Positions 12,050-63,080 of a stretch of DNA of 64,000 nucleotides are shown here, one piece after another. Below the pieces are notes generated by a model, which did not search any database, was not told the DNA's origin, and saw nothing but the letters and a program-made list of their open reading frames with translations. Location: contig NW_015166492.1 of assembly GCF_001447785.1 (NCBI RefSeq), positions 196,795 through 260,794 on the forward strand. The letters are read 5' to 3'. Position 1 is the first letter of the stretch. Each line of letters begins with the position of its first letter. The DNA comes from Gekko japonicus (Eukaryota). Made by a program: the position numbers and the translations under genes.

Positions 12050-12910
12050 ATCAGACCAAGAGCCACGGAGCCCAGCACCGCTGGCAAGAACCCCAAACTC
12101 ACCAGAACACTAGCCATTGTCTTCCTTCTGCTCGCCCACGCTTGATGCCGCGGCGTCTCCCAGCCCGCCGACCCCCTTCTTCTCTCCCCCCCCTCCCGCC
12201 TCACCTGTTGCCGGTCTCCATCTTTCTGGCGGCGCTCCAGGGCGCGCTCCACCGCCTCCCTTTGCGTTTCGCGCAGAAGATCCAGCTCCAAAAGCCCCGC
12301 GAGGCTGGCTTGGAGGCGCTCCCCAATGCGGAGCCGCTCGTTGCCGGACCACAGCGAGGGAGGCACGGCTCTGCGGGCCATGACCCTCCCGGGATGGGGG
12401 TCCGCTCCCCCCACCTCCTGCCTCTCGGAGAGAGGAGGCTGCATGCGCCTCGGGGGAGCGCAGGCAGCTGCCGGCAAGCTACCCTTGGAGGACTCTCCGT
12501 AAAGAGAACCCGGAGGAAAAGCGGGCCGGGGGAGGCACCTCGACAGATTCCGTACAATGCCGAAGACCGCGTTGCCGGTACGGAAAAGGCGCCTCCGAGC
12601 CCCGACTTCTGCAACTCTCCGCCTGGGCAAGAAGAAAACAGCACTTCAGACAAAGGGGACGGGTTTGAAAGAGTCACGTGGAGACAGGTTCTCTTCCCCC
12701 CTCTGCCCAGTTCCCCGGTTTCTGATTGGCTCAGGCTAGATAAAACAAAACATTCTTAAAGAGCGAAATTCCCTACAAAACAGAGCGAGCGAGCTAATAA
12801 ACCAGATGGCCTTGACATTCCAGGGTCGTTTCATTTGAGCCGCTTTCTAAACGTGGGTTTTTAAATAAATAAATATAAATATATATATCTTCAAGGGGCT
12901 GATTCAAAGA
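12050..12910. promoter_or_regulatory. CpG island and DACT promoter, with E-box GTCACGTG (12673-12680), CCAAT box (ATTGG 12725-12729) and TCF/LEF-like TTCAAAG (12903-12909)
   Basis: High CpG/GC density around and upstream of the DACT start codon. Motifs read directly from sequence; function untested. Confidence 0.6.
12205..12381 (-). CDS. DACT4: Dapper/DACT-family gene, first coding exon (probably DACT4); later exons not found in window
   Basis: ATG at 12381 gives MARRAVPPSLWSGNERLRIGERLQASLAGLLELDLLRETQREAVERALERRQKDGDRQQ, matching the Dapper N-terminal motif (ERL-x-A-x-LAGL-x-EL-xx-LR-xx-Q). Ends at a strong CAG|GTGAGG donor, phase 0, inside a CpG island. The DACT4 paralog call is inferred from synteny with ZBTB3. 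Confidence 0.8.
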
Positions 12911-14356
12911 TTAAAACGTTCCCAGCATCATAGAAAGAACCAAAAGTGGAGTCATTTGCTAAAGGTAGCTGACGGAATCTCCATACTTAGAAAGTCTGTC
13001 GCCAGCTGGGAACGAGGTAGGGTTGCCAACAGACCTGGAGAAAAAAATGTCCTGTCACTTTAATAGAGGTTTAATGTGTGGAAATGGGCAGCTGAAGCTT
13101 CCCATGAAGGAGAGATAAGTAAGATCACCTGCTAAATAGCATCCTTTAAGCCTCTGTTAAAGGGACAGGACAGTTTGCAACCCTACCCCGTTCCCAGTCC
13201 CTCTAGGCCAGTTGGCAACCTCTGAGGGCCTGCCCTTTATTTATACCCATTTTTCTCTCCACTAAGAACCCAAGGCAGCTTGCAACATCCTTCTCTCCAT
13301 TTTATCCTAACAACAACCCTGTGAGGTGGGTTTGACTATGAGAGAGAGAGACTGATCCGGGATCCCCCAGCCAGCTTTCAAAGCAGAGTGAAGATTCAAA
13401 CCTGGGGCTCCTGGATCCTGAACTGATACTCTGACCCCTGTGTCACACTGGCAGAACTGTTAACAGAGCTCACAACTATTTGTTTAGTACGTTTATAGTT
13501 CTCAGACAGCACACAAATGGCCGGAGGAACTCCTTTCAACATGATATCAAGAGTATCCATCTGGCCTTTTAACAATTTGCTGGCCAGACACCTGCAGGTA
13601 TACTGCCTCGGAGTATGGAAGTTCCTGGGCCCTAAATGCATGGGACCTCCATAAGAGCCTACATTTTCCTTTCTGGATCAGAAGACAATCATCATCCTCT
13701 GTAGCATGACCTCTTCCTTCTCCCCTTTAGCATTTATGCAGTGCTTTTGAATGTTCAAGTTGATTCACATATGGTACTTTAATGTAGTCCCTTACAACAC
13801 CCCTGTGAGGTAGGCCAGTATTACCAGTCTCCTATTCCAGAGATTGACAGCAAATAGCGTGCCGAAGGTCACCTCGGGAGTCAAACCTCGAGACAATTCA
13901 AACCAGAGACCTCCCGATTTGGAGATCAGTCTCCTAGTTACAATACTGAACAGAAACGCAGAGATACACTAACACGTGGCGATCGTGTTTATCGTGATCA
14001 ATAGCCATTGAAAGAACTTGTTAGCACCCATCATTACCTATTGCGGCAATGAATTCCAACCGTTAATCATGCGGTGGTGAAGAAAGGCTTCCTTATTGCA
14101 GGTGTTAATGTTCATGCCAATCAATTGAATTGGGGACTATAAAATAAACCTGGGAGTCCGCTCCCTGTGTATGCTCTGCCTCCGCCCACCGGAAACACAA
14201 CTTGGAGGTCGTGATTTTTAAACCGCCGCCTCTCCTTGTCGCTGTTTAGGAAGAACTTGTATAAATTTGTTACTGAAGGCATATCGAGGTTCGTTGTTTC
14301 TTGTCCTGTTCTCCCCCAAAAGGGGGCTTTTTCCCGTCTGTACCTTACTACGTAAG

Positions 14357-14396
14357 ATGGACCCGCGCCCTCCATTCAAAAACAGAAAACCCTTTG
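14357..14396 (+). CDS. MAP1LC3C-like: MAP1LC3C-like (ATG8 family) exon 1: MDPRPPFKNRKPF
   Basis: aagATGG start, PFKxRK motif of LC3 N-termini, G|GTAAGT donor (phase 1), 40 nt. Confidence 0.9.
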
Positions 14397-14618
14397 GTAA
14401 GTACCGACTCTATTTCCCGCCCGTGTAAACGCGCCTAACTTTGTGCTGTAAATTGTCGTTTCCAGCTAGGAGCGCTCCCTGCTGGTAAGAGAGGCTGCAG
14501 TGAATTGTTGGGGGCTTTAATATGTTTTCTGTGTTCTTTTTTTGCTTGTTAAGACAGAACTAACTTGAAAGATGAAGTCCTTTTCTGTTTCTGAAGGGAG
14601 TTTACTTTTCTGTTCTAG

Positions 14619-14674
14619 CCTGTAGGAAGAGTGAAGTGGCTTCTATTCGTCTCAAGTTTCCCAACAAACGACCG
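14619..14674 (+). CDS. MAP1LC3C-like: MAP1LC3C-like exon 2: (A)CRKSEVASIRLKFPNKRP
   Basis: Polypyrimidine tract with TAG acceptor, CCG|GTATGT donor, 56 nt. Aligns to LC3C IRQEEVAGIRAKFPNKIP. Confidence 0.92.
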
Positions 14675-14856
14675 GTATGTAGGTTTTGGGGGTATTCTGT
14701 TTTGCAGTGGTGAGTAATAATGTGGAGTGGGAGCAGGGGGCAGAGATGCTGCTCTGTTAAACGTGTTGGTAGAAGACCCAGCGATTATATGGAACTTTTT
14801 TCTTCAATCTTCTCTGCTTAACTATGTGCACTGGACACCCCCCCCCCATTTCAGTT

Positions 14857-15145
14857 GAAGAAGAAGAAGAGGAGGAGGAGATTGGATTTATACCCCACCC
14901 TTCACTTGGAGTCTCAGAGCGGCTTACAAAATCCTTTCCCTTCCCCTCCCCACAACAGACACCCTGTGGGGTGGGTGGGGCTGAGAGAACTCTGACACAA
15001 ACTGCTCTTTTTCAAGGACAGCTGTGCCAGAACTTGTGACTGACCCAAGGTCACATCAGCAGGTGCAAGTGGAGGAGTGGGGAATCAAACCCGGTTCTCC
15101 CAGATTAGAGTCCATGCACTTAACCACTACACCAAACTGGCTCTC
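14857..15145 (-). mobile_element. Squam3/MIR-like tRNA-derived SINE with (CTT)n tail
   Basis: Reverse complement of GAGAGCCAGTTTGGTGTAGTGGTTAAG...CTCACAGGGTGTCTGTTGTGGGG...TATAAATCCAATC(TTC)n. Further copies at ~26440, 39176, 43461, 58681 and 59530. Confidence 0.75.
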
Positions 15146-18100
15146 TGTCCCTAAATATTTATTATCTAAATATTTATTATTTATTACTTTCAATTTATAT
15201 CCCGCCTTGCCAGTGCAACACTGGCTCAAGGCAGCTTAGTTAAAATGCAATAAAACCAATAAGTACAGTAAAAATTCACAGTTAAAAGACAATTACATAA
15301 GGTGCTAATATACACAGATGGTAGCAATGTACGGATAAATCTTCAATCCACTCAGTAACTCCCTGTTGAGGAACTGTTACTATCTGTGTATGTAGTTCCC
15401 AACATGGCCAAATCTGTGGATGCTTAAATTCAGGGGGTTTTCTCCAAGAAACCTGGAAAATGCTCCATGTTTTTTTGGGGGGAGGATCTGAAATTGCTCA
15501 CCTGCAGGCCTTGGTATCTATCAGGAGGAGGCAGGGCTCTTTCCAGGAATGGCAAGACCATTGGGTGACTGGATACCTCACCAGTTGCATGATTCACCCA
15601 ATGTTGTTTCCTTGCTACTGTTCCGACAGTAGCTCCCTCTCCAAGCCAATGTGGTGTAGTAGTTAAGAGTTTCAGATTAGGCTTGGGAGACCCAGGTTTG
15701 AATTCCTGCTCTGCTGTGAAAGCTGGCTGTGTGACTGTGTTCATAGGAGTGCCATCCTCCAGGTGGTGCCTGGAGAGCTCTCAGGATTACAACTGGTCTT
15801 TAGCTGGTAAAGATCAGCTCCCCTGGAGAAAACGGCTCCTTTGCAAGCTGGTTTCTACAGCATTATGTCCTGCTGATCTCTTTCCCAAAACCCTGCTATC
15901 CCCAGGCTCCACCCCAAAAATATTCCAGGATTTCTCAACCCAGAGCTGATGACCCTATGGGCCAATCACACATTCTTAGTTTAATGTACAGGATAGTTGT
16001 GACGATGCGATGGAGGCGAGGAGAATGATATAAGTTGCCCTGGGTCCCCATTATGGACAAAACTGGAACATAAATGAAGTAAGTAATGTAGCTTAAGATG
16101 GGGAGGCAGTTAAAAAGTAGGTTAGTGGGTGGGAAGGAGAGAAGGAAGCAGGGAAATGGAGAGGATGGAGGGTTGCCAGGAGGAGGGAAAGAAGAAATAG
16201 TGCAGGGAAGAGGGCACGGGATAATGAGGAGTCCCCTGCAAGTCGTTGTAGGTTCCCCACCACACAACTGGGTCTGGCATTCAGTACTTGGCTGCCAGGT
16301 GGGAAAGCTGACTATGGGGCAGATAAAGGTAGGTTGGCTGGTGGGTGGGGGAAGGAAGCAGAAAAAGGGAGAGGCTACTGGGGGCTTTCATGGAAGGGAG
16401 ACAGGAAAAGGAAAAAAATGAAATGTCCTTTCAGGTCTCCTACGTGTATGCAATGAAATTCACCCCTGTTGTAAGGGTGCTTACCCTCTTTGCTTAGTGT
16501 CTATTGGTCTCATGTGGTGTTCTGTTTTTTAAAAATATCTTCTAAGAATTATAGTAGTACTAACCTGGCACATGTTCCCGAACTGGGTTGCTTCATTGAA
16601 GTTGGTAACTCAAGTTAGTGTGCTTATTTGAATACACACTTTTATTGCGTGCTTACTTCAAAGTAAAACTCTAGTGAAGTGTTTTTCTCACTGGGGTCAA
16701 CTCGTGTTTCAATTATACCGCTCAGGACTGCAGGTGGGAGGTCACATTTTATTTTTATTTACTTCATTTATAGACCACCTTTCTCATTGAGCCTCGAGGG
16801 GGGGGGGTTACAATGTTTTTAAAAAGCAGTTTAATCAGAGAGCAAGGACCACAGTAAACAACACAGGAGAACTAGGCTTACGGAATTGGGTAAGAGCGCA
16901 AACACCAACTACAATGAAAAGAAAGAGAGAATTGTCTAGGCATGGTATGTCACAATGCGGAAGGTGGATTACAAACATAATAAAAGGAAGTTGATAGAGA
17001 CAATGAACTTTGCAATATGCTTCAGTCCTCTCCTGTATAAAGCAGCCTCCTCAGCTGTTCCATACTGTTCTAGCCCCTTTATAGAAATGTCCTCCTGAAT
17101 TCTTTTCTGTTTTGCACGTTTTGCAGAATGATAGCAGGATTGGGAGCCTTGCTGATTTCCTCGTATGACTATTGCTCCATGTGCAATAATTCCCCACACA
17201 TAGAAATTTAGCGTCCCAGGGCTTGAATCCTTGTTCCTGACCTCTGTTTTTTAATGTGCTGGGAGTCTGTATGGAGCAGCATCCAATTACGTGGTGCCCC
17301 ATGCACATTTCACAGTTGGAAATGGTGTAGCCCAGGGATCCCCAACCTTTTTGAGCTTGTGGGCACCTTTAGAGTTCTGACACAGGGTGGTGGGAGCAGC
17401 CACAAAATGGCTGCCGCAGGAGATGGAGCCAACCACAAAATGGCTTCCTCAGGAGGTAGAGTCACACATATCAGAAGCCTAAGTGCAGGGGAGAAAAGGG
17501 GTAATTAGACACACACAAACACACACACAGAGGAAAAGAAGGCAGAGAGAATAAAACCCCACACTATCTTGGCAGCAAAACAATATTATTTTAATTTGCA
17601 CAGTCCATCAGATCTCCAAGGGCCCATTAGACACCCTGCTGGGAAAACCCCCACACAGTCCCACCCATTTTATAAGAACAGTAGGCACTGGCTGGATACC
17701 AAGAAAGGTGTCGGCAGGCACCAAGGTGCTTACAGCCACCATACTGTGGACCACAGGTGTAACCTATGTACTGGTTCACCACAGTTAATTCAGTGGGTCT
17801 CTACTTCTGTATAAATGTGACTATATCCATAAACTTAAATACATTAAAGACTGGATGCCTGGAATCTTGTTAATTTTCCTGTCCCCCCTGAATTACTTTG
17901 TACCCCCGACCCCTTTGTGAAAGAATGTATGTGGCCTGTTCAAGCATTCGGGATGAGCAAGGGAACAAAGAAAAGGTGAAAACGAACAGTCCCCTTTCCC
18001 TATGTTCAGTACTTCCCTGTAATGATGCTTAAGTAGGACAAGCTAGTACTACTTGAAGGTGCAGTAGTTTAAAGTTGGTCATTACCTTCTCATGGTTGGG

Positions 18101-19158
18101 TCTCCTGCCTGTTGTCCCTTGCTGCATGGACAAGATGGAGTCCCTGGGTCGAAGTTCAGTCCTTCATGGCTCGTGTCCGTTCAAGGAGCTGCTCTGAATG
18201 GAAGAAGAGCTGCTCCAAATAGAAGAGAGATTGTTCTGTGTCCTGAGCGTTTATAGTCTACCCTAGGAGTCCATCTTACTTTGAGGTCATTTTGATCCTC
18301 CTGCTTCAAGAAGAATAAAATAAATTGTACCAGTTTGGCTGTTCACTTCTCTGTCCCTTCGGGTGTCACCTTCCAGTAGACTATGGGGTGGTAAACCATT
18401 GTCCCGCTTTGGCCAGAGCCATTAGCATAACCAAGAACTTGAGTGCTCTCTGCGTTGAGCTGGATGGCTGCTTCCCCCAACCCTCTCCTTTCTGCCACCT
18501 GAGTGCAAGTGGGTTCCTGAGCACATACAGAATGCAGTCACAGTGCCTGAAATATTGGTGTGAAAATTCTGGGTGGGGAGTATTTCTCCCCACTCCTTAC
18601 TGGAACTGTGCTACTGTTCCCCTTCAGAATGTGGGTGGTGACCCTTCTTAAAGTCCTCTCTTGTATTTTAAGCTCTCTAGATGATTTCAGGAGAGCTTTC
18701 AATGGAACTTGTTCCCTTCATTCCCCCTCCTCCTCTGTTTTGTTCACCTTCAAACCTGAACTGAATTGGGGTATTTTATCTGACAAATGAAATACTACGA
18801 ATACACTGTAGGTAGGGATGGGCACTGTAAAATCCACCCAGAAGCTTGACAACTCTACCTTGACACTCATTGTTTGTACCTGATGCTGATACCTAAAACT
18901 GAGTTGTAATAATTGGTACAAACACAGGGCTAGGCAAATAGGGAGGTAATTGCTGACTGTTGGGGGGCTTAAGTGATGTTGTCCTTGCTGACAATATACC
19001 TGTGAGGCCTGGTGGGGGCAAACAGAGGGCTCTTTTCATTCCCTGCTTGTTTGAGCATTTTAGAGGCAAGTGATGCTCCACTGTTGGAGCCAATGTATGG
19101 CTGAGTTTGGACCACTGCCCTTACCAAGCCAGCTCCATGTTTCTTCCTATTTTCGTAG

Positions 19159-19265
19159 GTGATCCTGGAGCGCTATCCCAAGGAGAAAATATTGCCGGTA
19201 ATGAACAAGGTCAAATTCCTTGTTCCGGAAGACCTCACTATGGGCCAGTTTGTCTCGATTATCCG
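19159..19265 (+). CDS. MAP1LC3C-like: MAP1LC3C-like exon 3: VILERYPKEKILPVMNKVKFLVPEDLTMGQFVSIIR
   Basis: TAG acceptor, CG|GTAAGA donor, 107 nt. Aligns to LC3C VVVERYPRETFLPPLDKTKFLVPQELTMTQFLSIIR. Confidence 0.95.
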
Positions 19266-19870
19266 GTAAGATCAGTTTTTCTGTAGCATTAATCCTGCTC
19301 TGCAGGGGTGGTGTTTTTAGATGATGCAAGTTGTTTTGACTTTTGCATTTGTCCACTGTTACCCTGCACTTAGCCCGCCTAAGGTCTGAGTACAAGGTTA
19401 GGCTATAAACCTAAGCCTCTTTCATTGGTGAGAAATCCTCTTGATTCACTTTTCCTTCCTCTGGGCTTTGGCAAGTCCACAGCAGTTACCTCAAGATCTC
19501 CCCTTTGGGAAACACTGTTGGCTTACGGTATTGTTATAATTCGACTTGGACCTGAGAAGCGAGTACATGCACCACTTTTTTTTGCTGTCAAGTCACAGCT
19601 GACTTATGGCAACCCTGTAGGGTTTTCAAGGCTAGAGATGTTCAGAGTTGGTTTGCCATTGCCTGCCTCCGTGTTGTGACACTAATATTCCTTGGTGGTC
19701 TCCCATCCAAATAGTGACCAGGCTCAACCCTGCTTAGCTTCCAAGATCGGGTTATCCTGGGCTATCCAGGTCAAGGCATCTCAGGTCCAACTCAGATCTC
19801 TCCTCTGCGGTTAACATATTGGGTGGTCTTAGCCAAGTGGCTGTTTCCCCTAAACTGCAGCTCTCTCATC

Positions 19871-20075
19871 CAGTGTTCCTTCTAAGCTGAGTTAGTGTCA
19901 GCTAGCTCAGTTTTTTTAGCCACTGGCTCACACATTTTTGTCTTAGCTCAGGAAGGATGGCTCCAGAGCAAACTAATTTAAGCAGTAGCCAAATTGCTCG
20001 CTCACAACCTTAATGCCAGTAGCTCACAAAGTAGAATTTTTGCTCACAAGACTCCACAGCTTAGAGGGAGCATTG
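19871..20075 (+). mobile_element. hAT MITE family A (LC3-like intron 3)
   Basis: TIRs; TSD CTCTCATC/CTCCCATC. Confidence 0.9.
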
Positions 20076-20523
20076 CTCCCATCCTATTATGAACAGAACA
20101 CCGGCCTGCCACGTGGGATTGTTGGAAAGGTAACTTAAAATTGTGTGTGTGTGTGTATCCATAAACCCTAAGTATTTCTGTGCTTTGCTTTTGGAAGATT
20201 GTGTTTACTTGGGCTTTACTATTTTATCCTGACAAAATGAGATGTCCAGAGGGCCCTAGCAGGTTGTAGAAACAAGGGGGTTAAATATTTGCGACCTGGT
20301 TTAAGCTCCAGTTACATTAATGGGATTTAAGAGAGTCTGGTGTTGTGGGGAGGGAAATATCTCATTACACACAGGGAGGGGTGAGAGAATTTGTATGATC
20401 AGAAGCCTTGGTTTATATATTTTACAGACTGCCTTTCTCACTGAGACTCCAGGCATATTACAGAATAAAAACAATGTACTCTTTGCGGCATAAGACATGA
20501 TATTTCTTACTCTCTTCCCTCAG

Positions 20524-20686
20524 AAACAGAATGTCCATTGGCTCCACACAAGCCTTCTACTTCCTGGCTGATAATAACCGCAGTATGGTTAACATGTCAG
20601 CCACCATGTCTGAAGTGTACTCGAGGTACAAAGACGAAGACGGCTTCCTGTACATGACCTACGCCTCGCAGGAGACGTTTGGCTGA
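20524..20686 (+). CDS. MAP1LC3C-like: MAP1LC3C-like exon 4: NRMSIGSTQAFYFLADNNRSMVNMSATMSEVYSRYKDEDGFLYMTYASQETFG-stop
   Basis: CAG acceptor and hallmark KDEDGFLYMTYASQETFG. The four exons total 366 nt = 121 aa plus TGA with consistent phases. Confidence 0.95.
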
Positions 20687-29200: not shown

Positions 29201-30598
29201 CTACGAGGGATTCTCCACATCCTGTTTGCAACGTTTGGCTGCCAGGTCTGCGTTGTGTGCCTTCCGGATGTGCCGGTAGAGGTCTCCGGACTGGGTGTAG
29301 CTGCGCATGCAGTAGCGGCATTCGTAGGGGCGCTCCCGTGTGTGGACCGTGGCATGGCGCCGGAGCGTGTAGGAGCACGAGAAGGTCTTTCCGCATGTCT
29401 TACAAGTGGGCATGTCCTCTGTGAAGATGCCAAAGTTAGGGTGAACCTCATAGTCCTGTAGATACATCTGCTCGTGCAGAGGTGGAATCGCCATGTTGGA
29501 GAAACTTTGCCCGCTGGGCACAGGGATCATATGATAGGGCATGGGCTCCTGAGACAGGAAGGTACCGTCTGACGATACTTCCTCTAGCCCACCAGGCTCT
29601 GGAAAGTTGTCCAGATGGCGGCTGCAGCCTCCAGCTGACCCTGCCTCCACAGTGGGCCGCTGAAAGACACTCTCCAGCCTCTCCTCTGGGTTCTGCCCCT
29701 CCAGCTGCTCGACTGTGTCTGGCTCCTCATCGGAGATCACAATGGCTTCCATTTTGACTTTGATGGAGGGCCTGTTTGGCTCCTTTTGGCAAAATCCACT
29801 GACGCTGCCTTCCCGCTGTTCCACGTACTTCGCCGGAGCAGTGTCCACACTGGAAGGCCCCTCAGCAATGTTCCCCAGAGGAAAACAGCTGTGTGAGATG
29901 GTTTCGGTGGAACTGCTGGGGCTGGAGAGGGAGATGTCAATGATGGCTGGTGGGAGGGGTCTGGTTGGGGGAAGGGCTTGTGGGGAATCACCTTCCATGC
30001 CGGGCTGGGTGGTGTCCGCGACATCCAGCGTGGAGGCCAGCAGCTCATCAGAACCAACTTTCTCCACTCCCTTCCACTCCTCAGTGCTTTTCTTCTGTGC
30101 TTCGCAAGGCTGAGCGGGTGGGGGGGGCAACGACTGTGCCGCAGGGGCCAGCGGCTGGCACTTGGAGGTGCTGGGTACAAGTTCTGAACTGGCCGGGGAG
30201 TCCTCCTCCTTCTTAGTACTGTCCGCTTCAGCCAGAGCCCGGGCCTGCAGTTTCTTCTTGCACACCTTCACAATGTCGTTCATGTGCAGGTAGCTGGCAG
30301 CAGCCAGGACGTCCTCCACCGGAGTGTCATTGAAGGAGAGGCCGCCTTGGTACATGAATTCCAGGAGCAGACCAAACGCTGGGGCAGTGACGATCTCATT
30401 GTTGATGCACACCAAGTCCCCCTTGTCCAGCCCTTCCTTGTAGAACATGTGGAAGAAGGCACTGCACGAGGCGAGCACGGCTCGATGGGCCACGAACTGG
30501 GTGTTGCCCACCAGCACCGTGCAGTCGCAAAGGAAGCCATCGTGTTGCTGATCCCGCAGGCTCCGCAGCAGGTTCTTGCTGTGGTCTGGGAAATCCAT
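29201..30598 (-). CDS. ZBTB3: Zinc finger and BTB domain-containing protein 3 (465 aa from MDFPDHS)
   Basis: BTB domain [28 protein letters not shown]...[28 protein letters not shown] and exactly two C2H2 fingers ([21 protein letters not shown]; [22 protein letters not shown]), as in ZBTB3. An acceptor starts the exon at 30649, so the ORF-track extension to 30763 is intronic. Confidence 0.95.
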
Positions 30599-32636
30599 GC
30601 TGGCGGCCCTTTCAGGATTGTGGAGACGCCAGTGGCATACCTTTACACCCTTGGGATACAAGAAAAAGAAGGGAGGGGGCACAGAGAACTTAGTAACTTT
30701 ACGGCAAGGGCTTTGAAAGGTTGGATTTTCAGCCTTTGCGTTACGTTCTGGAATGCAGGGCAAGGTGAACTGTTAGGTTATACCGTGTTTCCCCGAAAAT
30801 ACGACACCTAGGTTATATTATTGGTCTGTCAAGCCCAAATTATCACCTCTGACTGGCAGCAGGTCTCCAGAGCAGTTTTCCAAACAAGGCTACCTGAGAG
30901 GCTTTAAAAATGACCTGGGGGCCTTTCTGGGACAGCACCCTCACCTCTGCTGTCTGGGGCTCTACCATCTACCTTCAAGCGACCAGCCTCTGCCTGCTGC
31001 CACTTGCAGGGCAGAAAGGTAGAATTCCACCTAGAGATTTCTGGCTCCAATCCTACATCTCTTTCATTTGGGGCAGGACACCCTCTTTGACCCAAACAGC
31101 TGTCAAGCTAGACAGCTGATGCCAAGGCCTTTCTCCTCCCAAATCCCTCCACAAATCTCACCCCCAAACAGTCGGCATAACTTGAGCACCCTTCCAAATG
31201 AGCCCAGGCTGTTCCCAGTACCTGTGTGCCTGCCTTTGATCTTAAGCACAAATGCATGCTGTGGGTTCTCTTTATTTTGATTTCTGCTGTCAGGTCTGTG
31301 GGAACTCCACCCCCCACTACGTCCTTTATCAGAATGCTATTTTTCAAGTACCAATTCACCCAGATTGTGCCCCCAACAAGAATGCCCCTTACTCTAAACT
31401 CCTCTTACCAGACTCCTCCCTACTGCCCAACCCTTCCACTCCTTAAAGATTCTCATTGTAATGAATCCTCACACCCACTTGCCTTCAGCATATTTTCTGG
31501 TGTGCTCCCAAATACTTCTGGCCTCTTATGTTCCATTCCCCCACATAATTAATCTCTCCTCCTAAACCTGGGGCGTTCCCCCCCCCCGGTATTTGCATTT
31601 TTCTCTGCTTCTCCCATTATACCCCCCCCCCCAATGAAGACCCCCTTTACCAAACACTTGACTTCTACTTAGCTCACCCCTCCCCCACATTGACCCCCCC
31701 TTNNNNNNNNNNNNNNNNNNNNNNNNNNNNNNNNNNNNNNNNNNNNNNNNNNNNNNNNNNNNNNNNNNNNNNNNNNNNNNNNNNNNNNNNNNNNNNNNNN
31801 NNNNNNNNNNNNNNNNNNNNNNNNNNNNNNNNNNNNNNNNNNNNNNNNNNNNNNNNNNNNNNNNNNNNNNNNNNNNNNNNNNNNNNNNNNNNNNNNNNNN
31901 NNNNNNNNNNNNNNNNNNNNNNNNNNNNNNNNNNNNNNNNNNNNNNNNNNNNNNNNNNNNNNNNNNNNNNNNNNNNNNNNNNNNNNNNNNNNNNNNNNNN
32001 NNNNNNNNNNNNNNNNNNNNNNNNNNNNNNNNNNNNNNNNNNNNNNNNNNNNNNNNNNNNNNNNNNNNNNNNNNNNNNNNNNNNNNNNNNNNNNNNNNNN
32101 NNNGTAGAGGTAACGTCTCGGAGACTGAACAGCCCGTTTACTCTTAGCCTTTAGCATTGATTGGTGGAACTTCTTGAAACCCGCCTCCATAGAAAGAAGA
32201 GGAGGAGATTCGGTTACTATAGTTACTGGGAGTCGTGCTAAGACTGAGGAAAGGGTTGGTTGGGATACAGTCAAATCTTATCCTCAGTTATGCAAACACG
32301 TGTACTTGCTGAATATAACATAATATCTGAGTAGAGAAAAAACCCACACGAACCTTTATTATTATTTATATATATCTAGTACCTTTGTATCCCACTCAGG
32401 GTTAGTGTAGATGATTTTCCTTTCCCTTCCTCCATTTTATCCACACAAGAACCCAATGAGGTAGGATAGGCCGCAAAAGTGACGGTCCCAAGGTCACCCA
32501 GCAAGCTTCCAGGGCAGGTGGAAATTCTAATTTGGGTCTCCCTGATCCTAGTCTGACACGCTGGCCACTACATAATTGTGGCTTTTCATATTGTTATATT
32601 TTTTATTTCTTTATTTGGATTTGTATCCCACCTTCA

Positions 32637-32723
32637 GAGGACGGCGGGAGACAGGAAGGCCTGACGTGATATGATCCATGGGGTCGCGAAGAGTCAGACT
32701 CGACTGTGCGACTGAACAACAAA
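32637..32723 (+). mobile_element. BovB/RTE LINE 3' end fragment
   Basis: ACAGGAAGGCCTG...TCCATGGGGTCGCGAAGAGTCAGACTCGACT...GACTGAACAACAA, flanked by direct repeat ATCCCACC. Confidence 0.75.
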
Positions 32724-32782
32724 TCCCACCCTCTCTCTGCAAACAGGCTCAGGGTGGGTTCCAAGTAGGTAAATATAATATA

Positions 32783-33136
32783 AAGTTAAGGTAAAGGTTC
32801 CCTTGCTCGAAAGCCAGTTGAATCAGACTCTAGGGTTGCGGTGCTTAGCTTATCTCCGTTTCCAAGCCGAAGAGCCAGCGCTGTCCGAAGACATTTCCGT
32901 GATCATGTGGCTGGCATGACTAAACACCAAGGCGCAGGGAACGCTGTTACCTTCCCACTGAAGTGGTACCTATTTATCTACTTGCAATTTCTTGCTTTCG
33001 AACTGCTAGGTTGGCAGGAGCTGGAACTAGAGACGGGAGCTCACTCCGTCATGCGGCACACTCGGGTCTCGAACTGCTGAACTACCGACCTTCCACAGCC
33101 TGCAGTTCAGCGTCTTAACCACTTGAGCCACCACAG
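32783..33136 (-). mobile_element. Sauria SINE
   Basis: Reverse (AAGGTA)n tail, TGCTTTCGAACTGCTAGGTTGG core, tRNA head; homologous to 2704-3025. Confidence 0.85.
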
Positions 33137-33721
33137 CTCAAGAAATATAATATACAATACAGTTAAACCCACTTAAAACATCAGTATAAAATAACACAAA
33201 TCCTAAAATACCATGTAAACTTTTAACAAATATCAGGTTTCTTAGTGGTTAAGATAGAATTAAGAATACTGGGCCACTGACGGGGGAAGGGGGCCAGGCG
33301 GACCCAGAAAGCCACCCCCTTCCCGTCTTTATAGCTCTGCCCCTAGTTCAGTCAGCATGCTAAAGCGTAACAATGTCAAGAGAACAGAACATAATGCAGG
33401 AAATTGGGTTGGACACAGATAGGACAATCAGAGCCAGAGGTAGCTTTCCAGGTGGGGCTTCACACCACTGACTCAGTTCTTTATTCTTAACTGGGAGGCA
33501 TTTTGGGGACCCTGGAGTATTCTTTGTACTGCCTATGAATTAAATATGACATTTTTTTCAGAAGCTTTATCTCGTAATGGCAACATCAGGGTTAGGCCTG
33601 GAGCTCTTGTTTATTAGCCGCTGTGTGAAAAGGATGCTGGATTAGATGGACTTCTGGCCTGATTTTCTTATGGACATCTTCCTTAAATAAACAAGCTACT
33701 CCTTGGTCCTGTAACTCTGCT

Positions 33722-33935
33722 TAGGGTTGCTGGGTTGGAAAATTCCTGGAGATTTGGGGGCAGAGCCTGGGAAGGGCGTAGTTTGTGGAGGAGAGGGGAG
33801 CTCCACAGAGATGTGAGGCCACAGACTTCACCCTCTGAAGGTGCCATTTTCTCCAGGGGAACTGATCTTGATAGTCTAGAGATCAGTTGTAATTCCAGGA
33901 GAACTCCAGTGCCTGCCTGGAGGTTGGCAACCCTA
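33722..33935. mobile_element. hAT MITE family B (TAGGGTTGCCA TIR, ~215-230 bp)
   Basis: TAGGGTTGC...GGCAACCCTA ends. Many diverged copies, e.g. ~830, 15746, 24243, 35566, 40478, 44000, 48589, 51015, 51537, 56850. Confidence 0.75.
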
Positions 33936-36126: not shown

Positions 36127-36207
36127 ATGAGGAAGAAAGAGCCTTCGAGAGGGGACACCCCTCTGAGAAGATCCATCCGCCTGCAGCAAGAGAAAACTGG
36201 GGAGCAG
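36127..36207 (+). CDS. PLD3/4-like gene, candidate coding exon 1: MRKKEPSRGDTPLRRSIRLQQEKTGEQ
   Basis: aacATG start in a CpG-rich context and strong CAG|GTGAGG donor, phase 0. Linkage to the PLD exons is inferred from phase and position only. Confidence 0.55.
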
Positions 36208-49852: not shown

Positions 49853-50062
49853 ATGCAGGTTTCAAAGGAGCCCCAGCACTCAAAGGAAAGGAGCATTGAT
49901 GACATTCTTCAGCCCCGGGAGAGTATCAGGGCTCACAGACATGTTATCCCAACTAAGGAACCATCACCTCCTCCTCCTCCATCCCGTGGTCCTCTGTTGG
50001 TATCAGGGCCAGAAGCTCCAAAAGACAGTGAACAAGCCATGTTGGAAAAAGACAATGTATTG
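49853..50062 (+). CDS. PLD3/4-like gene, candidate exon 2 (70 aa, Pro-rich, disordered)
   Basis: ttctcag acceptor, open frame MQVSKEPQHSKERS...AMLEKDNVL, TTG|GTAAAT donor, phase 0/0, unique non-repeat sequence. Confidence 0.55.
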
Positions 50063-50814
50063 GTAAATCCTGAAACACAATTTTGGCTGGTTCAGATTTT
50101 AGGTTTCATTGAGGGCTGTTTCCCCAAGAATGTTTTGCTTCACCTTAGCTTTTCTTACCGCAGTGCTGTTTGGGGGAACATCCAAATGATGTCTTTGCTG
50201 CAAGCTTTCCGAAACCTAGTTTGGTATGATCTTTTTGGAAAGATCTCAGTTAAAGTATCATTGGATGTCCTGTGGATGGGAAAGTGTACATTTTTCCAGG
50301 TCCCACCGTTTCCCTTAGCTCAGCCCTCATACCATTCTCCACCACCATCACTGGAGAACTGACTGACAGTTTAATATAGTGTCCTAAATCTGTAGTCGTT
50401 TTCCTTATGGAGATGCAAGTGGAAATGTGGAGGCTGCACATTTTTCCTTACAGCTTAGCAAAAAAAAGGACTAGAGACTTACTTTTTGTAAAATGAAAGC
50501 TGGGAACGACTGTACTGTTGCAACAGGTCATTTTAATGCTTTAGCAATAGAGCAATTCCTGTTTTTTTAAAGATGGGGGGGAATGGTGGTAGCGAGGTAC
50601 TGAGGCAAGCAAAGTCTGGGGGATGCTTCTGAGTCCGAGGCCCCATTGCCCCTGCCATGGCTTCTGCGTGCCCACAGCACAGAGGAGCAGCTATCGTAAG
50701 CAACAGAGTTGCCCAGAGACATTTTGGTGCCTAGAATGGAAACTTCAGATTTTAAATTAGATGTGATATGGTAAGAATGTGAAGGTGCTTGGGAGCAGCA
50801 GTGGGTCAGATTGA

Positions 50815-51040
50815 GAGTACTTAATCCTTTCCCCACTAACCCTCTTCATACTGCTTTTCTTCCTACAGGGGGAAAAGAATTGGGGACACTCTTCCCAGTA
50901 GGGGTGCCAACCTCCAGGTAATAGCTGGGAGAGTACCTAATCCTTTCCCCGCTAACACTCTTCATACTGCTTTTCTTCCCATAGGGGAAAAGAATTGGGG
51001 ACACTCTTCCCCGTAGGGGTGCCAACCTCCAGGTAATAGC
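50815..51040. repeat. Tandem duplication (~120 bp, 2 copies) including a MITE B left end
   Basis: AATCCTTTCCCC...GGGGTGCCAACCTCCAGGTAATAGCTGG repeated. Confidence 0.8.
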
Positions 51041-54000
51041 TGGATATCTCCCGCTATTACAATGGATCTCCAGGCGATAGATATCAGTTCACCAGGAGAA
51101 AACTGGCTGCTTTGGAAGGTGGACTCTGTGGCATTATACCATATCGCCCTCCCCAGGCTCCACCCCCCAAATATCCAGATATTGCTTAACCTGGAACTGG
51201 CAACCCTACTTTCCATTTGTGGGTGGACAAGCAGCAGGAGGGGGGAGATTTTGACTGGGGGGGGGATGTTAACCCCACCCGCTCTTGCTTCCACAGCAGC
51301 TCTGATCAGACTCAGGGCCCCTCTGTAGCTGCTTTGAAGTTTTTAAAAAAAGCTTGTTGGGAGATACTATTGCACCGTGTCTAGTTTGGCTTTGACGTGG
51401 AGCCCAATTTACAGGGATCGGCGGCACAAGCCCCACAGAGACACAAAACAGTCCTGCACAACTATTGTGAGTTTTAGTGGGATTTGTGCGGGAGAATTTC
51501 TTGGTGGATTGTGCCCGCAGGCGCCTAAGTCAGATCTAGGGTTGCCAGCCTCCAGGTGGGGCCTGGAAACCTCTTGCAATCACAACTGATCCCCAGACCA
51601 CAGAGTTCGGTTTCCCTGGAGAAAACAGCTGCTTGGGAGAATGGACTGCAAGGAGTTACATGCTGCTGTGGGGTCCCGTTCCTTCCTTCCCCAAACCCAT
51701 CTCTCCCCTGGCTGCACTAGGGCTGCCAGGCTCCAGGTGGCGGCCGGAGATCTCCCACTGTTACAGGCGACCGACATCAGTTCACCTGGAGGAAATGGCT
51801 GCTTTGGAAGGTGGACTCTGTGGCATTATACCCTACTGAAGTCCCTCCTTTCCGAAACCCTGCCCTGCTCAGGCTCCACCCCCCCCCCAAATCTCCAGGA
51901 ATTCCCCAACCAGGAGCTGGCAACTCTGCAACTTTGCTTTTCTTTGTTTAACGGCACCCAATATTCTGAGTCAGATGCTCTGGCTTGCCTGTTATATGGT
52001 CTCCTCTGGCTGGTGGCACTTCAAGAGGTAGATCGATGGCCTTCGGAGTCTTCTGGCAGCCACCTGACGCACATAAATCCAGCAGGTGAACCCCAGGCCC
52101 TTGGAAGTATCTGCTGCTTGGGTGTGTGTGAGTCAGGCTGCTGCTACAGGCACAGAAAACAAAGATGGCCACCACAGCTGAGTGCGTTGAATGGAAAAGA
52201 AGACATACATCCATTTTCCTTTTCAGCCCCCTTTTGTCAGGCTGAAGAGACTGGACGTCCCACAGGAAGAGGAGTCTTCCCCACACCAAAACAAGCCCAA
52301 AGAGGTAACCAGGGCTGAATGAAATGGTGTACAAATCCAGGGGCCCCTCTTGGGAAAGATAATTTACCTGGGGAAAACTCTGCTCTCTTCCTCTTGCCCT
52401 CTGCGGAGTGTGATCACGTAGGGTTGTTGCCAGCGTGAGGCTAGCAACTGGTGGTAGTGGTGGGGTTACCGGTGATGTTATTACATCACCAGCAGTATGC
52501 TGATGTCAGTGCATCACCAGTGATGCTCTAGCATTCAGCCCAAACTCTATGGTTTAACCATAGAGTTTTGATCAAATGCTGGAGTGGTATCCTGACGTCA
52601 AGAAGCTGGCAGGCCCCCCCCCCCCGTTTTCCTCCCGCTGCCCAGCTGAGCAGCAACAGGAAGGGCACGCTGGTGGGAGGAGATCCTCTGCAACCATAGG
52701 ATTAGGCACAGCTTGTGGAAGTTTCAAGCAGAAATTCACCTGGCAAAGCTTTCCTCCAAAGTGGGAAATGATTCACCGGGTGAATTTCTGCTTTCAAGGC
52801 ACAGGAGCGATGGCTGGAGGAAAACCGTAGCAATTCCGATACTAAACTATTTAACATTTTATAGCTGATAAGAGGGTCATGCTTGCAACACTCCTATTAT
52901 GCAGAGGGTCCCTGCTTGAGGGCGGCCTCCTCCCATTACACAAGCCCCTCCTCTACACATGGCATTATGCATCTCACAATAAACATGCCTGGGAGGACAA
53001 GCACAAGCGTACTGAGCCCATCTGCTCCACCTATGCACAGCTGCTGGCTCCTGAACAGAGAGGGCCAAGTCTACTCATCGCAAAGTCCTTCTGTTTGTTG
53101 GGGGACGACACGAGGACTCTGCATCTGACGTGCCGCTTTTGGCTCTGTTGCTCAGGTGGCCACGTTTAGTTTTTGCAGCAGAGCCCATAGTGTCTCCACA
53201 GGACAGTTTGAGGATGTGAAAAGAGCCCTGGGTGGTGGGAGGCTGAAGCTGCTTTGCCTCAGGCACCGTGGTCAAAAAGTTCCGTTTTGTTGGCTTGCAG
53301 TACGTAACTGTAATCCGATCAATAGCAAATCTATTTGCAAGTGCACATTAAGTGCAATATTTTTCACACAACAAGGTGCAATATTTTTCACACAACAAGG
53401 TTCAGACCCTCGGAATAATTTTGGGATAAGACCGTGCATCTGTGGGAGTTGCCCCTGAGGAACCATCTTATGGGTCCGTTGAAGTAAAAGGTTTGGGAGG
53501 GAAGGAAAGAGCATCTGGTTTGTATGCAGGAGGTTCCCAGGTTCAGTCTTTGGCATCTCCAGTTAAAAGGGACCAGGCAGTAGGTGGTGGGAAAGACCTC
53601 TGCCTGAGATCCTGGAGAGCTGCTGTCAGCCTAAGTAGATAGTACTGACCCTGATGAATCGATGTTCTGCTTGACGTGCAGAAGGTCCCAGGTTCAATCC
53701 CTGGCATCTCCAGTTCAAGGACCTGGCAGTAGGTGATGTGAAAGACCTCTTCCTGAGAGCTGCTGCCACTGCGTAGACAATATTGACCCTGGTAGACTAA
53801 TAGTGTGATTTAGTATAAGACAGCTTCATGTGCTCATTTGCGTTCATGTCAGTTATACACCTGGGAGGTCGGAAACTCTCATGGCAAAGCTGAAACAAAG
53901 TCCTCATATCATCCCCCAACAAACACAAAAGGTGAGATTTGCCTCAGAGTCTGCATGGGCAGGAGGTGATTTGAAATGCTCATTATCTGTGTATTCTCCA

Positions 54001-54094: not shown

Positions 54095-54298
54095 TTTTGT
54101 GGCAGGGGAGTCACTGCTGACTTCTTTATTTTGTGGCAGGGGAGTCACTGCTGACTTCTTTATTTTGTGGCAGGGGAGTCACTGCTGACTTCTTTATTTT
54201 GTGGCAGGGGAGTCACTGCTGACTTCTTTATTTTGTGGCAGGGGAGTCACTGCTGACTTCTTTATTTTGTGGCAGGGGAGTCACTTCTGACTTCTTTA
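54095..54298 (+). repeat. Minisatellite, 6 x 34 bp (TTTTGTGGCAGGGGAGTCACTGCTGACTTCTTTA)
   Basis: Six contiguous units, only one mismatch (last unit), no spacers. Confidence 0.95.
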
Positions 54299-55150
54299 TC
54301 TGAAGAAGAGAGCCGTGACTCACGGAAGCTCATCCCCTGCCACAAATTTTGTTAGTCTTTAAAGTGCTGCTGGACTCTTACTCTTTTCTACTGGTTATTG
54401 TGTGTATGCGGGGAGTTGGGGCTACTCCACCTTTACACGGATTGGTTTTAGTGGACACAATGTGCATGTGCAGAGCGAAGCTTCTACTCCACCTGCCTTA
54501 TACCCTGTTGGTTTACCCTCCAATAATCTACTGATTTGAAAACCAAGACAGGCCTTATTTTCAAAGACATATTTGAAAAACGTAAATCATCCGTTCAAAA
54601 TATACCTTAACTGCTGCCGGCTGCAAACTTGCCAGGCTGCATGTGGCCTGGTGCTTTAGTGCTCATGTGTGTTCATCGACAAGCACACGGATGAAATGCT
54701 GCCATCCATCCACTGAGACAAAGCTGAGCCCTGAATGCTCACGATTCATGCAACATTTGAACAAGACATGTTCCCGCCCCCAAAGATAACAGCGAAAGCA
54801 AAATTAAGGCACTGATTTACCAGACAGAGGTGCCAGATCATCACTTGGGTTTTGGCCACTGTGGGACACAGAGTGTTGGACTGGATGGGCCACTGGTCTG
54901 ATCCAACATGACTTCTCTGGTGTTCTTATCAGAACCATCCTTATAGCTCGAGCAGGTGATGTACCTCCTCTTTCTATTTTGGGAGGCAGCTGCTGAAGCC
55001 TGCCAGGTAGATGGGCATTCAGCCATGCTCCCAGTACCATTTGGGGCCTTTGCAAATTGTTTCTCTTTGTCCGCGGAGGACAGTGTCCTGTAAGCCACAC
55101 CTCCACTCAGAGCAAGAAAGAACAGCCTTCTGGTCTGCTTCTCCCCACAG

Positions 55151-55438
55151 CCGCAGGACCCGAACGTCGAGTGGGAAGTGGTGAAAGACCAGCAAGCCCG
55201 GCTGCGGGTGCTGGAGACCAGACCCCGGAGGACAGAGGAGAGGGCGGCGGTGGAACAGGGGGCGCCCAGCCGGCAAGGCATGGTGGCAAACCGGACTCTT
55301 AGGCAGCAGGCCCGGGTGGGGCTCACCCCTCGGTGGTGGGGCCCAGCGTCACAAGCCCAAGCCCGGAAGGAGGCCGACCCTCACAAGCTGCCGAGGACGG
55401 CTTTGCCACCCAAAGCAGGCGGCAAAAAGTGGACCAAG
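55151..55438 (+). CDS. PLD3/4-like gene, candidate exon 3 (96 aa, basic, disordered)
   Basis: ctccccacag acceptor, CpG-retaining open frame PQDPNVEWEVVKDQQARLR...KAGGKKWTK, AAG|GTATCG donor, phase 0/0. Confidence 0.65.
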
Positions 55439-56603: not shown

Positions 56604-56791
56604 CGACTCTTTTCTCTGCCCAGTCTCTGCCTCCTCCTCTTCCTGCTCATCCTGGGCTTCGCTTGCTGGTACACATGGAGATACGGAAGCCCCGTCTCTT
56701 TCCTGGGGTTGGCTGCTGCATACGGGCAGTGGGGACTGAGCAGCTTGCCGAGGCTGTGGAGCAGGACTGAGGAATGCAGCACTCAGTGCAG
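56604..56791 (+). CDS. PLD3/4-like transmembrane exon: RLFSLPSLCLLLFLLILGFACWYTWRY...TEECSTQC
   Basis: Acceptor ttctcttag, hydrophobic TM helix, AG|GTAAGG donor (phase 2). Splices in frame to give CSTQCSLVLVESIP (cf. PLD3 CYDPCEAVLVESIP). Confidence 0.85.
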
Positions 56792-58991: not shown

Positions 58992-59175
58992 CCTAGTGTT
59001 GGTGGAGAGCATCCCAAGCAGCTTGACATACCAACCAGATGACCCTCATCATTTGAGTATCTATCAGGCCTGGATGGACCTTCTGGCCAGAGCCAACAGC
59101 AGTGTGGATATTGCTGCTTTCTACTTCACTCTCCGAGACTCAGATATTAAGGTGGAGGATCCCTCTTCCCAACAG
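58992..59175 (+). CDS. PLD3/4-like luminal exon: SLVLVESIPSSLTY...VDIAAFYFTLRDSDIKVEDPSSQQ
   Basis: LVESIP and DIAxFYxTL motifs of PLD3/4/5; canonical AG/GT. Confidence 0.93.
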
Positions 59176-61184: not shown

Positions 61185-61299
61185 GGCAGAGATGTGTTCG
61201 ACTCACTGCTGGGCCTGCCTTCTCGGGGGGTGAAGCTCAGCATTGCTGTGAATAGCCCTCAGATGTCAGAGGATGACACAGAGGAGTTGGCCCGCCAAG
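61185..61299 (+). CDS. PLD3/4-like exon: GRDVFDSLLGLPSRGVKLSIAVNSPQMSEDDTEELARQG
   Basis: Matches the PLD3-type segment (RGVxxxIAV); CAG acceptor, G|GTAATG donor, phase 0/1. Confidence 0.9.
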
Positions 61300-61869
61300 G
61301 TAATGGCAGAAATTTTCCTAGTAATGACAGTCATCTTCTAAGGTCTTTCGAGAGTCAGTGAGGTTTAGTGTAGCGGTTACTGCGTTGGGCTACAATGGAA
61401 GAAGCATGGGTTTAGTTTCCAGAATTTGCCAACTGCCTTGAGGGAAAAAAAACATCCTGTCCCTTTAGTACAGGCTTAATGGGATGTTATTATTTACCAA
61501 GTCATGTTCTTTACCTCCATGCCTTGAAAAGCTTTGGCTGCCCATTTCCACACGTTCCCCACGCTCTTAAAAGGACAGGACATTTTTCTCCACGCCTTTT
61601 GGTAACCCTACACCTCTGTGTTCCGCAGTGGATTCTGAGAGTGTTCTAAGCACTCCCCACATGCTTTGAAGCATAGTTTTGCAAACGCTGTGGAATAAAA
61701 CTGGGGTGCCCAACTTTTTTGAGCCTGCAGGCATCTTTGGAGTCCTGGCACAGCCTGGTGGGCACAGCCACAAAATGGCCGCCGGCGGAGATGGGGCCAG
61801 CCACAAAAAGAATCGCCGAAGTTTTATTTCAGTCACACAGCGAAGATCCTTGTGCTGTGGTGGTAGCTG

Positions 61870-62248
61870 TGACGGTATTTTAGAACGCCGGAAATAACAG
61901 CAGAGTCTCTGTTTCTTATATATAGGGTATTTACATTTATTTACACTGCACACTGGATACAAGTATACAGTCCTTCTGTAGCAAATACAGTGTTCAGAGC
62001 GACAAAGTGCTACACGGACAGATAATCCCATAACAGAGATGTGCAGTGCTGTACAAGCTGCAATATATATATTTACACCAACCAATCAGGTCACAGTAAT
62101 TACACTAGCTGAGTCATGGTGACTGTTCCAGAATCTGATGCAATCTTTTAGTCACCTGACACCTGACTGTCAGACTAGATCAGCATGATCTGACACTTCA
62201 GCTAATGACTCACTGACATCTTGCCAGGAATATATCCAAATATTGTCA
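61870..62248 (-). mobile_element. Solo LTR (379 bp) inside a hAT MITE in a PLD intron
   Basis: TGAC...GTCA termini, perfect 5-bp TSD AGCTG, TATA-like and AATAAA signals on the minus strand. Confidence 0.8.
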
Positions 62249-62623
62249 AGCTGCTGCCAAAGCAGCATTTTTAAAAAATCTGCCCAGCCAATCAAATCTT
62301 TCATGCCTCATCAGAAGCATTGCTGGATAGAAGGCCCACCCGGCGACTCCCTTCTTTCTAAAAACACTTGGCGGGGACTAGGAAAGGAGTCGGCAGGTAT
62401 CATGGTGCCCATGGGCACCCTATTGGGGACACCTAGTCTAGCAACATGCTGAACTTTGGTTCCCAATACTTCACTGTGGAAAATTGACTTAGTTGACTCA
62501 TCCCTAATAGACTTTTTGTTCTTCCTCTACCACCTTTGGCCCCTGAAACAGATGAGGGACAAAGCAAGGAGGCCTTGGCCGTTTGCCAGGGCAAACTTAA
62601 TTCATTCTCTGCATCCTCCGCAG

Positions 62624-62751
62624 GTGCTGACATACAGTATGTGAACATGAAGAATTTGACGGGGGGGATTGTGCACACCAAGTTCTGGGTAGTTGATCGG
62701 ACGCATGTCTACATAGGCAGCGCCAACATGGACTGGCGCTCGCTCACTCAG
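62624..62751 (+). CDS. PLD3/4-like exon with first HKD motif: [43 protein letters not shown]
   Basis: Intact HxKxxxxD and [12 protein letters not shown] signature of PLD3/PLD4. Confidence 0.96.
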
Positions 62752-62879
62752 GTACCTCCAGGGTGGGGTGGGTGTGGGTCAAATGGGGGGGTTGGAGATG
62801 GCTCAGCGGAAGCGCCCTGCTAGAGGGGAGGCCAGCTGGAGCGAGAGAGGCCCTTTCTGCAGTGTTCTTTGTGTGGCAG

Positions 62880-63080
62880 GTCAAGGAGCTGGGTGCCGTC
62901 CTGTACAACTGCAGCTGCCTGGCTCAGGATCTGGGCCGGATCTTTGCCGTGTACAACATGCTGGGAGGAGAAGGGGCTTCCATCCCTGCAGCGTGGCCGG
63001 CTAGCGTTGCGGCAGAGTCCAGCCTGAACCGCCCCTTGAAGCTGCAGCTCAACGGCTCCAGTGCAGAAGTCTACATTTCC
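62880..63080 (+). CDS. PLD3/4-like exon: VKELGAVLYNCSCLAQDLGRIF...SAEVYIS (gene continues past window end)
   Basis: VKELG-xxx-YNCSCLA-x-DL motif; CAG acceptor, TCC|GTAAGC donor. Confidence 0.94.

Follow-up and report, generated by a model that had tools for sequence, protein, structure and literature searches.

It has been reported that a Dact gene named Dact4 lies beside Map1lc3c, Zbtb3, Polr2g and Ttc9 in reptiles and the coelacanth (Schubert et al., 2014; PMC4236578). According to the text of that study, Dact4 is always linked with Ttc9 and mostly with Map1lc3c, Zbtb3 and Polr2g accompany Map1lc3c in sarcopterygians, mammals retain the Dact4 locus (in human on chromosome 11) without Dact4 itself, and the gene is gone from frogs. 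In the same text the LC3 gene is treated simply as Map1lc3c and the PLD gene is not named, though the synteny figures may show more. In a second study, Table S10 of 'elusive' genes lists the Gekko japonicus proteins XP_015267668 (PLD) and XP_015267662 (Dact4), together with an ADSS-like gene, as kept in reptiles and absent from mammals (Hara et al., 2018; PMC5901865); as stated there, elusive genes tend to cluster. No row for an LC3C-like gene was found in this table, which gives neither protein anatomy nor function. In the present work, we analysed 64,000 nt of G. japonicus DNA (the window), in which a DACT gene (minus strand), an LC3C-like gene (plus), ZBTB3 (minus) and a PLD-like gene (plus) follow one another. 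The block is mostly already published, the Dact4-Map1lc3c-Zbtb3 linkage in PMC4236578 and Dact4 and the PLD gene as elusive genes in PMC5901865. We suggest that it is very probably a block derived from the early vertebrate genome doublings (2R), whose genes are linked by descent and each work like the rest of their family.

The order and strands of the four genes, which had been proposed in an initial annotation of this DNA, were confirmed by exon models. The DACT gene is represented by exon 1 (12381-12205, minus strand), and is followed by the four-exon LC3C-like gene (14357-20686, plus strand; 121 aa), ZBTB3 (30598-29201, minus strand; a single frame of 1398 nt, 465 aa) and the PLD-like gene, of which nine exons were found (36127 to 63080, plus strand) and which runs past the right edge of the window. 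Database entries place the ZBTB3 frame and the full-length PLD protein P0314 on one scaffold of 274,489 bases. Every intron in the models used GT-AG sites, and the claim that the exons are free of frameshifts held for all spliced models, which contain no internal stop either. Pfam E-values for the window proteins were 7e-6 (Dapper), 8e-37 (ATG8), 1e-25 (BTB) and 3e-38 (PLDc_3), which places the gene assignments beyond chance. The block had also been called intact; this is true of the LC3C-like gene and ZBTB3, which are complete within the window, but not of the DACT gene, with one coding exon of 59 codons, or of the PLD gene, with 491 of 692 codons and its second catalytic motif beyond base 64000. 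For both of these, full-looking database models are available (XP_015267662, as a table row, and P0314). Two pairs of genes are arranged head to head, Dact4 with the LC3C-like gene (12381-14357, 2 kb apart) and ZBTB3 with the PLD gene (30598-36127, 5.5 kb apart).

The PLD gene is, judged by its sequence, fish pld7 and not an orthologue of PLD3. Together the nine exons encode residues 1-491 of P0314 (= XP_015267668), a protein of 692 aa. A search with exon 9 returned 47 proteins, led by 'PLD3-like' proteins of lizards, turtles, tuatara, crocodilians, salamanders and caecilians, mostly of 600-800 aa, and a search with a skate fragment gave, among the best 120 of 685 matches, sharks, rays, bichir, sturgeon, gar, teleost proteins named pld7, coelacanth and lungfish. 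No frog or mammal was among the matches listed, and the lone bird row was PLD3. This is paralleled by Table S10 of PMC5901865, in which XP_015267668 has 0 bird and 0 mammal orthologues and has coelacanth, gar, zebrafish and stickleback members, and in which the gene is kept separate from PLD4, the latter being entered as its representative paralogue by BLAST score. A tree of the luminal domain was built from 29 rows, with three PLD3 rows and a nematode outside and with PLD4 and PLD5 not included; in it the window protein falls inside a 25-row clade, reaching from sharks to geckos and containing proteins named pld7, that stands apart from PLD3 with support of 100/99. The approximately unbiased (AU) test rejected a grouping of pld7 with the three PLD3 rows (p 5.3e-7). 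The suggestion that this gene might match fish pld7 was thus borne out.

The first five exons of pld7, all on the plus strand, encode a cytosolic tail and a membrane anchor. Exon 1 (36127..36207) carries an RRSxRL motif (36166-36183), exon 2 (49853..50062) a PRxSI[RK] motif (49913-49930) and exon 3 (52227..52304), which is absent from some database isoforms of relatives, a PxVxLxRL motif (52230-52253). Exon 4 (55151..55438) contains EWEVV (55169-55183), which resembles an LC3-interacting region (LIR), and exon 5 (56604..56791) encodes the one hydrophobic stretch, which follows residue 220, has a mean hydropathy of 2.5 across 19 aa and is predicted to be a type II anchor. The luminal PLD domain begins in exon 6 (58992..59175) and continues through exon 7 (61185..61299), exon 8 (62624..62751; Pfam PLDc), which holds the first HKD motif (62674-62697), and exon 9 (62880..63080), after which the gene continues beyond the window. 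Within the introns, a 34-bp unit is present in six near-perfect copies (54095-54299), and a 115-bp doublet lies at 50813-51043.

Like the endolysosomal 5' exonucleases PLD3 and PLD4, pld7 has one membrane anchor, two HKD motifs and most of the dimer residues, and over the luminal domain it is about 51% identical to the PLD3 rows. PLD3 residues were mapped onto pld7 through PDB alignments, with their roles taken from the text of PMC12749308 and PMC10783504. In all 43 pld7 rows H201, K203, D208, N218, D220, E229, H416 and K418 of PLD3 are invariant, and so are N432, Y126, W367, H369, Y437, R350 and S380; at F335, F341, F377 and Y411 an aromatic residue, the same or a different one, is found in 41-43 of the 43. 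Both HKD/E motifs and the substrate residues are intact, the first motif in the window and the second in P0314, and it is likely from these residues that pld7 is an active PLD3-type enzyme. The second motif is HKD in pld7, whereas human PLD3 has HKE, and two positions are changed with respect to PLD3, N328 to Asp and Y354 to Cys. This last cysteine and a second one (C552 and C589) are invariant in the 43 pld7 rows and absent from all four of the others, three PLD3 rows and the nematode; our guess would be that they form a disulphide near the dimer face. CxFC surrounds F335 in 35 of the 43 rows. The second motif reads H-A-K in ray-finned fish (P0242, P0247, P0259; teleosts) and H-N-K in other vertebrates, and the ray-finned fish tails are much longer and acidic. 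In a text search of the literature, no paper dedicated to pld7 and no relevant paper on the phylogeny of PLD3/4/5 was found; the retention of the catalytic residues, the private cysteine pair and the long conserved tail with its three motifs were found undescribed so far.

The tail is what sets pld7 most visibly apart. Before the hydrophobic segment there are 135-443 aa in all 46 pld7 genera, compared with 25-39 aa in two full PLD3 rows. In the gecko it is rich in P, R, E, K and Q and has 18 lysines and no tyrosine; no Pfam match and no usable ESM Atlas match was obtained for it. Three motifs run in the same order from sharks to geckos, namely RRSxR in 39 of the 46 genera (0.7 expected from shuffles), [PL]RxxI[RK] (PRxxI) in 36 (0.9 expected) and [VIA]xLx[RK][LMV] (VxLxR) in 38 (3.0 expected), and a strict PxVxL is present in 27 (6.6 expected). 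The patterns were drawn from the same, related sequences, so that the shuffle control overstates their significance and speaks for conservation, not for function. A conserved tyrosine or dileucine lysosomal signal was considered and rejected (YxxPhi 14 against 9.1 expected, dileucine 4 against 11.0). An acidic W-x-x-V motif of the LIR type is present in 10 of the 46 genera (0.2 expected), in lepidosaurs and the alligator only; it was missing from all four turtle long forms checked.

RRSxRL motifs can serve in the import of proteins into the nucleus or in binding to nucleosomes. This invites the idea that pld7, instead of being a second lysosomal PLD3, is retained by its tail at the inner nuclear membrane or the endoplasmic reticulum, RRSxRL providing for import or for binding to nucleosomes and PxVxLxRL for binding to HP1, much as in the lamin B receptor (LBR), a membrane enzyme with a chromatin-binding tail. 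The length of the tail in every genus, the collinear motifs far above shuffle expectation, the frequency of strict PxVxL, and the lack of tyrosine in the gecko tail and of any excess of YxxPhi or dileucine signals all point this way. In addition, according to the text of PMC13371100, other residues are allowed at P and L in HP1 codes of the PxVxL kind, and one such code is carried on the membrane-anchored tail of LBR. However, the patterns were defined after the sequences had been seen and in related genera, the first proline is missing in sharks and most teleosts, and the catalytic domain would lie on the luminal side of the membrane and not on that of the chromatin. A text search of the literature found no paper on RRSxRL. 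Moreover, PLD3 reaches lysosomes through ubiquitination of its tail, as stated in PMC10783504/PMC12749308, so that the 18 lysines of the gecko pld7 tail make lysosomal sorting compatible with a lack of tyrosine signals. On balance we regard retention at the inner nuclear membrane or the endoplasmic reticulum as unlikely. More speculative, and rather improbable as a whole, is a scenario in which pld7 would be a fourth, catalytically complete enzyme of the PLD3 family in fish, amphibians and reptiles, whose tail, by binding chromatin and HP1, would have moved it from the lysosome to the nuclear envelope, a location for this family of nucleases that mammals would have lost, and in which the LIR-like motif of lepidosaurs could hand pieces of the envelope to the neighbouring, priming-free LC3C paralogue.

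Turning to the left end of the block, the exon features identify the DACT gene as Dact4 and not as an orthologue of DACT1-3. Coding exon 1 (12205..12381, minus strand; 59 codons with a GT donor) matches Pfam Dapper and turtle Dact4, 38 of its first 48 residues being identical, by eye, to the turtle row in Additional file 10 of PMC4236578. The Dact4-type N-terminal motif 1 (MARRAV..SLWSG.[ED]R.RIGERLQASLAG) is present in the gecko exon, and the first 11 residues of this N-terminus are missing from the Dact1/2/3 rows displayed in that file. Among representatives clustered at 50% identity there were 38 matches, 11 of which were examined and 10 named; among the 11, full-length matches near the top were without an end of the Dact1-3 type, the coelacanth Dact4 of PMC4236578 was one of the top relatives, and a DACT2-type protein ranked lowest. 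In the text of PMC4236578 the Dact4 type is described as having four exons and as lacking the leucine zipper and the PDZ-binding MTTV end, and the linkage to Map1lc3c and Zbtb3 reported there agrees with the order seen in the window. Table S10 of PMC5901865 lists a separate DACT2 in the same species and, for the Dact4 group (XP_015267662), orthologues in 1 bird and 0 mammals. Neither tblastn of the window with four other Dact proteins nor a motif scan and tblastn of 1-12200 revealed further DACT exons. Exon 1 lies at a CpG-rich stretch (12001-12500). The Gekko kuhli DACT model P0188 joins exon 1 to segments that correspond to intronic DNA in the window (10337-12381), where the window copy has a stop; it is likely to be a wrong gene prediction caused by the long first intron.

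The third gene of interest appears from its sequence relationships to be an LC3C-type paralogue and not the species' MAP1LC3C orthologue. Its exons on the plus strand (14357..14396; 14619..14674, encoding K30-R31-P32; 19159..19265, with K49, K51, F52 and L53 of the LIR-docking site; 20524..20686, with the stop codon right after the lipidation glycine G121) give 121 aa and a stop, 100% identical to the G. japonicus database protein P0001. Among structures LC3C was the best match (164 bits; LC3A 128, LC3B 122), the LIR-docking and C-terminal residues are invariant, and the docking residues and terminal Gly that mark the LC3C subfamily are present. The gecko's own MAP1LC3C, P0022, lies on a different scaffold and is 60% identical to the LC3C-like protein, which differs from it by a one-residue insertion near N86 and a shorter N-terminus. 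The human MAP1LC3C is located at 1q43. In two trees (51 and 41 rows; alignment of 134 columns) the squamate LC3C-like proteins formed a clade (100/99-100) with the lungfish LC3C-like protein as its sister (98/93; 95/91), apart from gecko MAP1LC3C, although the vertebrate backbone was unresolved. Five further squamate rows (P0065, P0073, P0098, P0107, P0112) group together with 100/99 support, separately from MAP1LC3C and from the LC3C-like type, and Rhineura carries this third type beside the type of the window. It is possibly another ohnologue or the counterpart of fish map1lc3cl. The LC3C-like gene had been put forward as a fourth 2R paralogue; its separateness from P0022 stands, while its status as a 'fourth' copy is not established because squamates have three LC3C types.

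Because the LC3C-like protein ends at its glycine, it is predicted to be lipidated without priming by ATG4. The stop follows directly on the Gly in 11 of 12 squamate LC3C-like rows. As a feature unique to this type the Gly-stop had to be discarded, since it is also found in three frogs, lampreys and two molluscs. At residue 31 (14663-14674) Arg stands in place of the usual Leu/Ile/Val of the K-x-P-V strand in the gekkonid rows of G. japonicus, G. kuhli, Heteronotia and Paroedura, four in all, and is not a sequencing error; Euleptes, Sphaerodactylus and other squamates do not have it. The 266-aa Discoglossus entry P0002 holds two LC3C domains in tandem and is either an annotation that joins tandem duplicates or a true fusion. 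LC3C duplicates are not discussed in the main text of PMC13020874, and among the matches listed in a text search of the literature no paper was by its title on the evolution of map1lc3cl.

The coding exon of ZBTB3 (29201..30598, minus strand) encodes 465 aa with a BTB domain and two C2H2 fingers and is matched exactly by an entry of the protein collection; the members of its 90% cluster are named ZBTB3. Against PDB its BTB domain scored 219.8 bits with ZBTB18 and at most 99 with any other single BTB, as expected of a paralogue. The likeness to the ZBTB18/ZBTB42 group is in the BTB domain; the window protein differs in having two zinc fingers, and ZBTB3 is kept in mammals. No paper treating ZBTB18, ZBTB42 and ZBTB3 together was found in a text search of the literature. 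A second G. japonicus entry, P0172, is identical at 414 of 415 positions, lies on an 11.8-kb contig and is likely an uncollapsed allele. An assembly gap (31703-32103) covers sequence where the ZBTB3 promoter or a non-coding exon might lie.

Taken together, the window would represent one of four copies of a segment that arose in the early vertebrate genome doublings, with a gene order common to other reptiles and the lungfish, from which mammals would have deleted all but ZBTB3. The genes would have stayed together by descent and not as a functional unit, each probably working as its family does. The LC3C paralogue would be a lipidated Atg8 with no predicted need for ATG4 priming. For pld7 a type II membrane topology is predicted, with a likely active luminal 5' exonuclease domain of the PLD3 type that would be directed by a long cytosolic tail not present in PLD3. 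Dact4 would be the reduced adaptor known from the 2014 study, and ZBTB3 would belong with the BTB-zinc finger factors around ZBTB18. Using the accession numbers of block genes as a proxy for linkage in 12 species, we found neighbouring or ordered numbers in seven, namely G. japonicus, G. kuhli, Paroedura, Heteronotia, Varanus, lungfish (within 4 numbers) and python. In the human genome ZBTB3 and POLR2G are neighbours, PLD5, MAP1LC3C and ZBTB18 lie together at 1q43-44, PLD4 lies beside ZBTB42 at 14q32, and PLD3 is on 19q13. In the Crotalus adamanteus model P0309 pld7 is fused to POLR2G (Rpb7), probably because the annotation merged two genes that lie side by side, and this puts pld7 between ZBTB3 and POLR2G. 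The block extends beyond the window, the ADSS2-like elusive gene (row 404 of Table S10, PMC5901865) having the accession next to that of gecko Dact4. The duplication that gave rise to pld7 reaches at least to sharks, and an early duplication has been published for Dact4 (PMC4236578, in the text).

Several observations weigh against this account. Exons 2-4 of Dact4 were not seen in the window, and the PLD tree, in which lamprey and amphioxus are missing as well as PLD4 and PLD5, brackets the 2R timing by sharks and nematode only. The AU tests did not reject a position of the LC3C-like clade as sister to gecko MAP1LC3C (p 0.26), to gecko plus treeshrew MAP1LC3C (0.25) or to the third squamate LC3C type (0.26; 134 columns). 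In five of the 12 species the accessions are distant or uninformative (87 apart in coelacanth, 317 in Rhineura and about 6,700 in Eublepharis, on the same scaffolds; alligator and softshell turtle uninformative). The freedom that the LC3 trees leave for a sister relationship to MAP1LC3C, together with the higher score of pld7 against PLD3 than against PLD4 structures (456 and 392 bits), could be read as a sign that one or more of the genes arose from PLD3, MAP1LC3C or DACT2 by translocation or by copying within a lineage and are not ancient duplicates. Separate MAP1LC3C (P0022, on its other scaffold) and DACT2 genes are present in the species, however, the pld7 clade spans sharks to geckos with PLD3 outside, and the lungfish LC3C-like gene, sister to the squamate clade, adjoins lungfish pld7. 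Such an origin is already largely refuted for the PLD and DACT genes, and for the block we consider it extremely improbable. The claim that the genes are paralogues and not orthologues of DACT1-3, MAP1LC3C and PLD3 is upheld by the Dact4 exon match, the PLD tree and the two separate loci.

It had further been proposed that the block is an autophagy-lysosome module. A co-regulated module kept for joint function, in which for instance a LIR in the pld7 tail binds the neighbouring LC3C paralogue, would be in line with the two head-to-head pairs, with the excess of acidic W-x-x-V motifs in pld7 tails and with the ties of the LC3 and PLD3 families to lysosomes that are described in the text of PMC10783504/PMC12749308. 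However, the linkage is far older than this motif with its lepidosaur and alligator distribution, Dact4 is without the leucine zipper and PDZ-binding end (PMC4236578, in the text), and members have been lost separately, Dact4 being gone in frogs and pld7 present in salamanders and caecilians. No functional tie among the genes emerged, and the unrelated ZBTB3, ADSS-like and POLR2G genes are retained alongside. We therefore give the module very little credence; it is also unneeded, because linkage by descent suffices.

Retention by descent would make the block an example of a known pattern, in which one of four duplicate segments is eroded gene by gene in mammals and kept in reptiles and fish. 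As had been anticipated, automated pipelines mislabel the survivors, which are filed as PLD3, PLD4, DACT2 or MAP1LC3C, a possible source of error for studies of autophagy and nucleic-acid sensing in fish and reptiles: coelacanth Dact4 carries the NCBI label 'dapper homolog 2', alligator pld7 is called 'PLD3', gar pld7 'PLD4' and the Pogona LC3C-like protein 'light chain 3 gamma'. The part worth following is pld7, with an apparently complete PLD3-type active site behind a conserved tail that is possibly directed to the nuclear envelope, and the gene is present in zebrafish. If pld7 is the sister of PLD5, it could reveal the function of the ancestor of PLD5, itself a poorly understood protein.

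Two other open frames were noted in the window. That at 7281-8066 (261 aa) has no Pfam match and was ruled out as a Dact exon, as neither Pfam nor tblastn gave a match. The frame at 40599-41246, again with no Pfam match, resembles by eye the end of a long interspersed nuclear element (LINE) protein.

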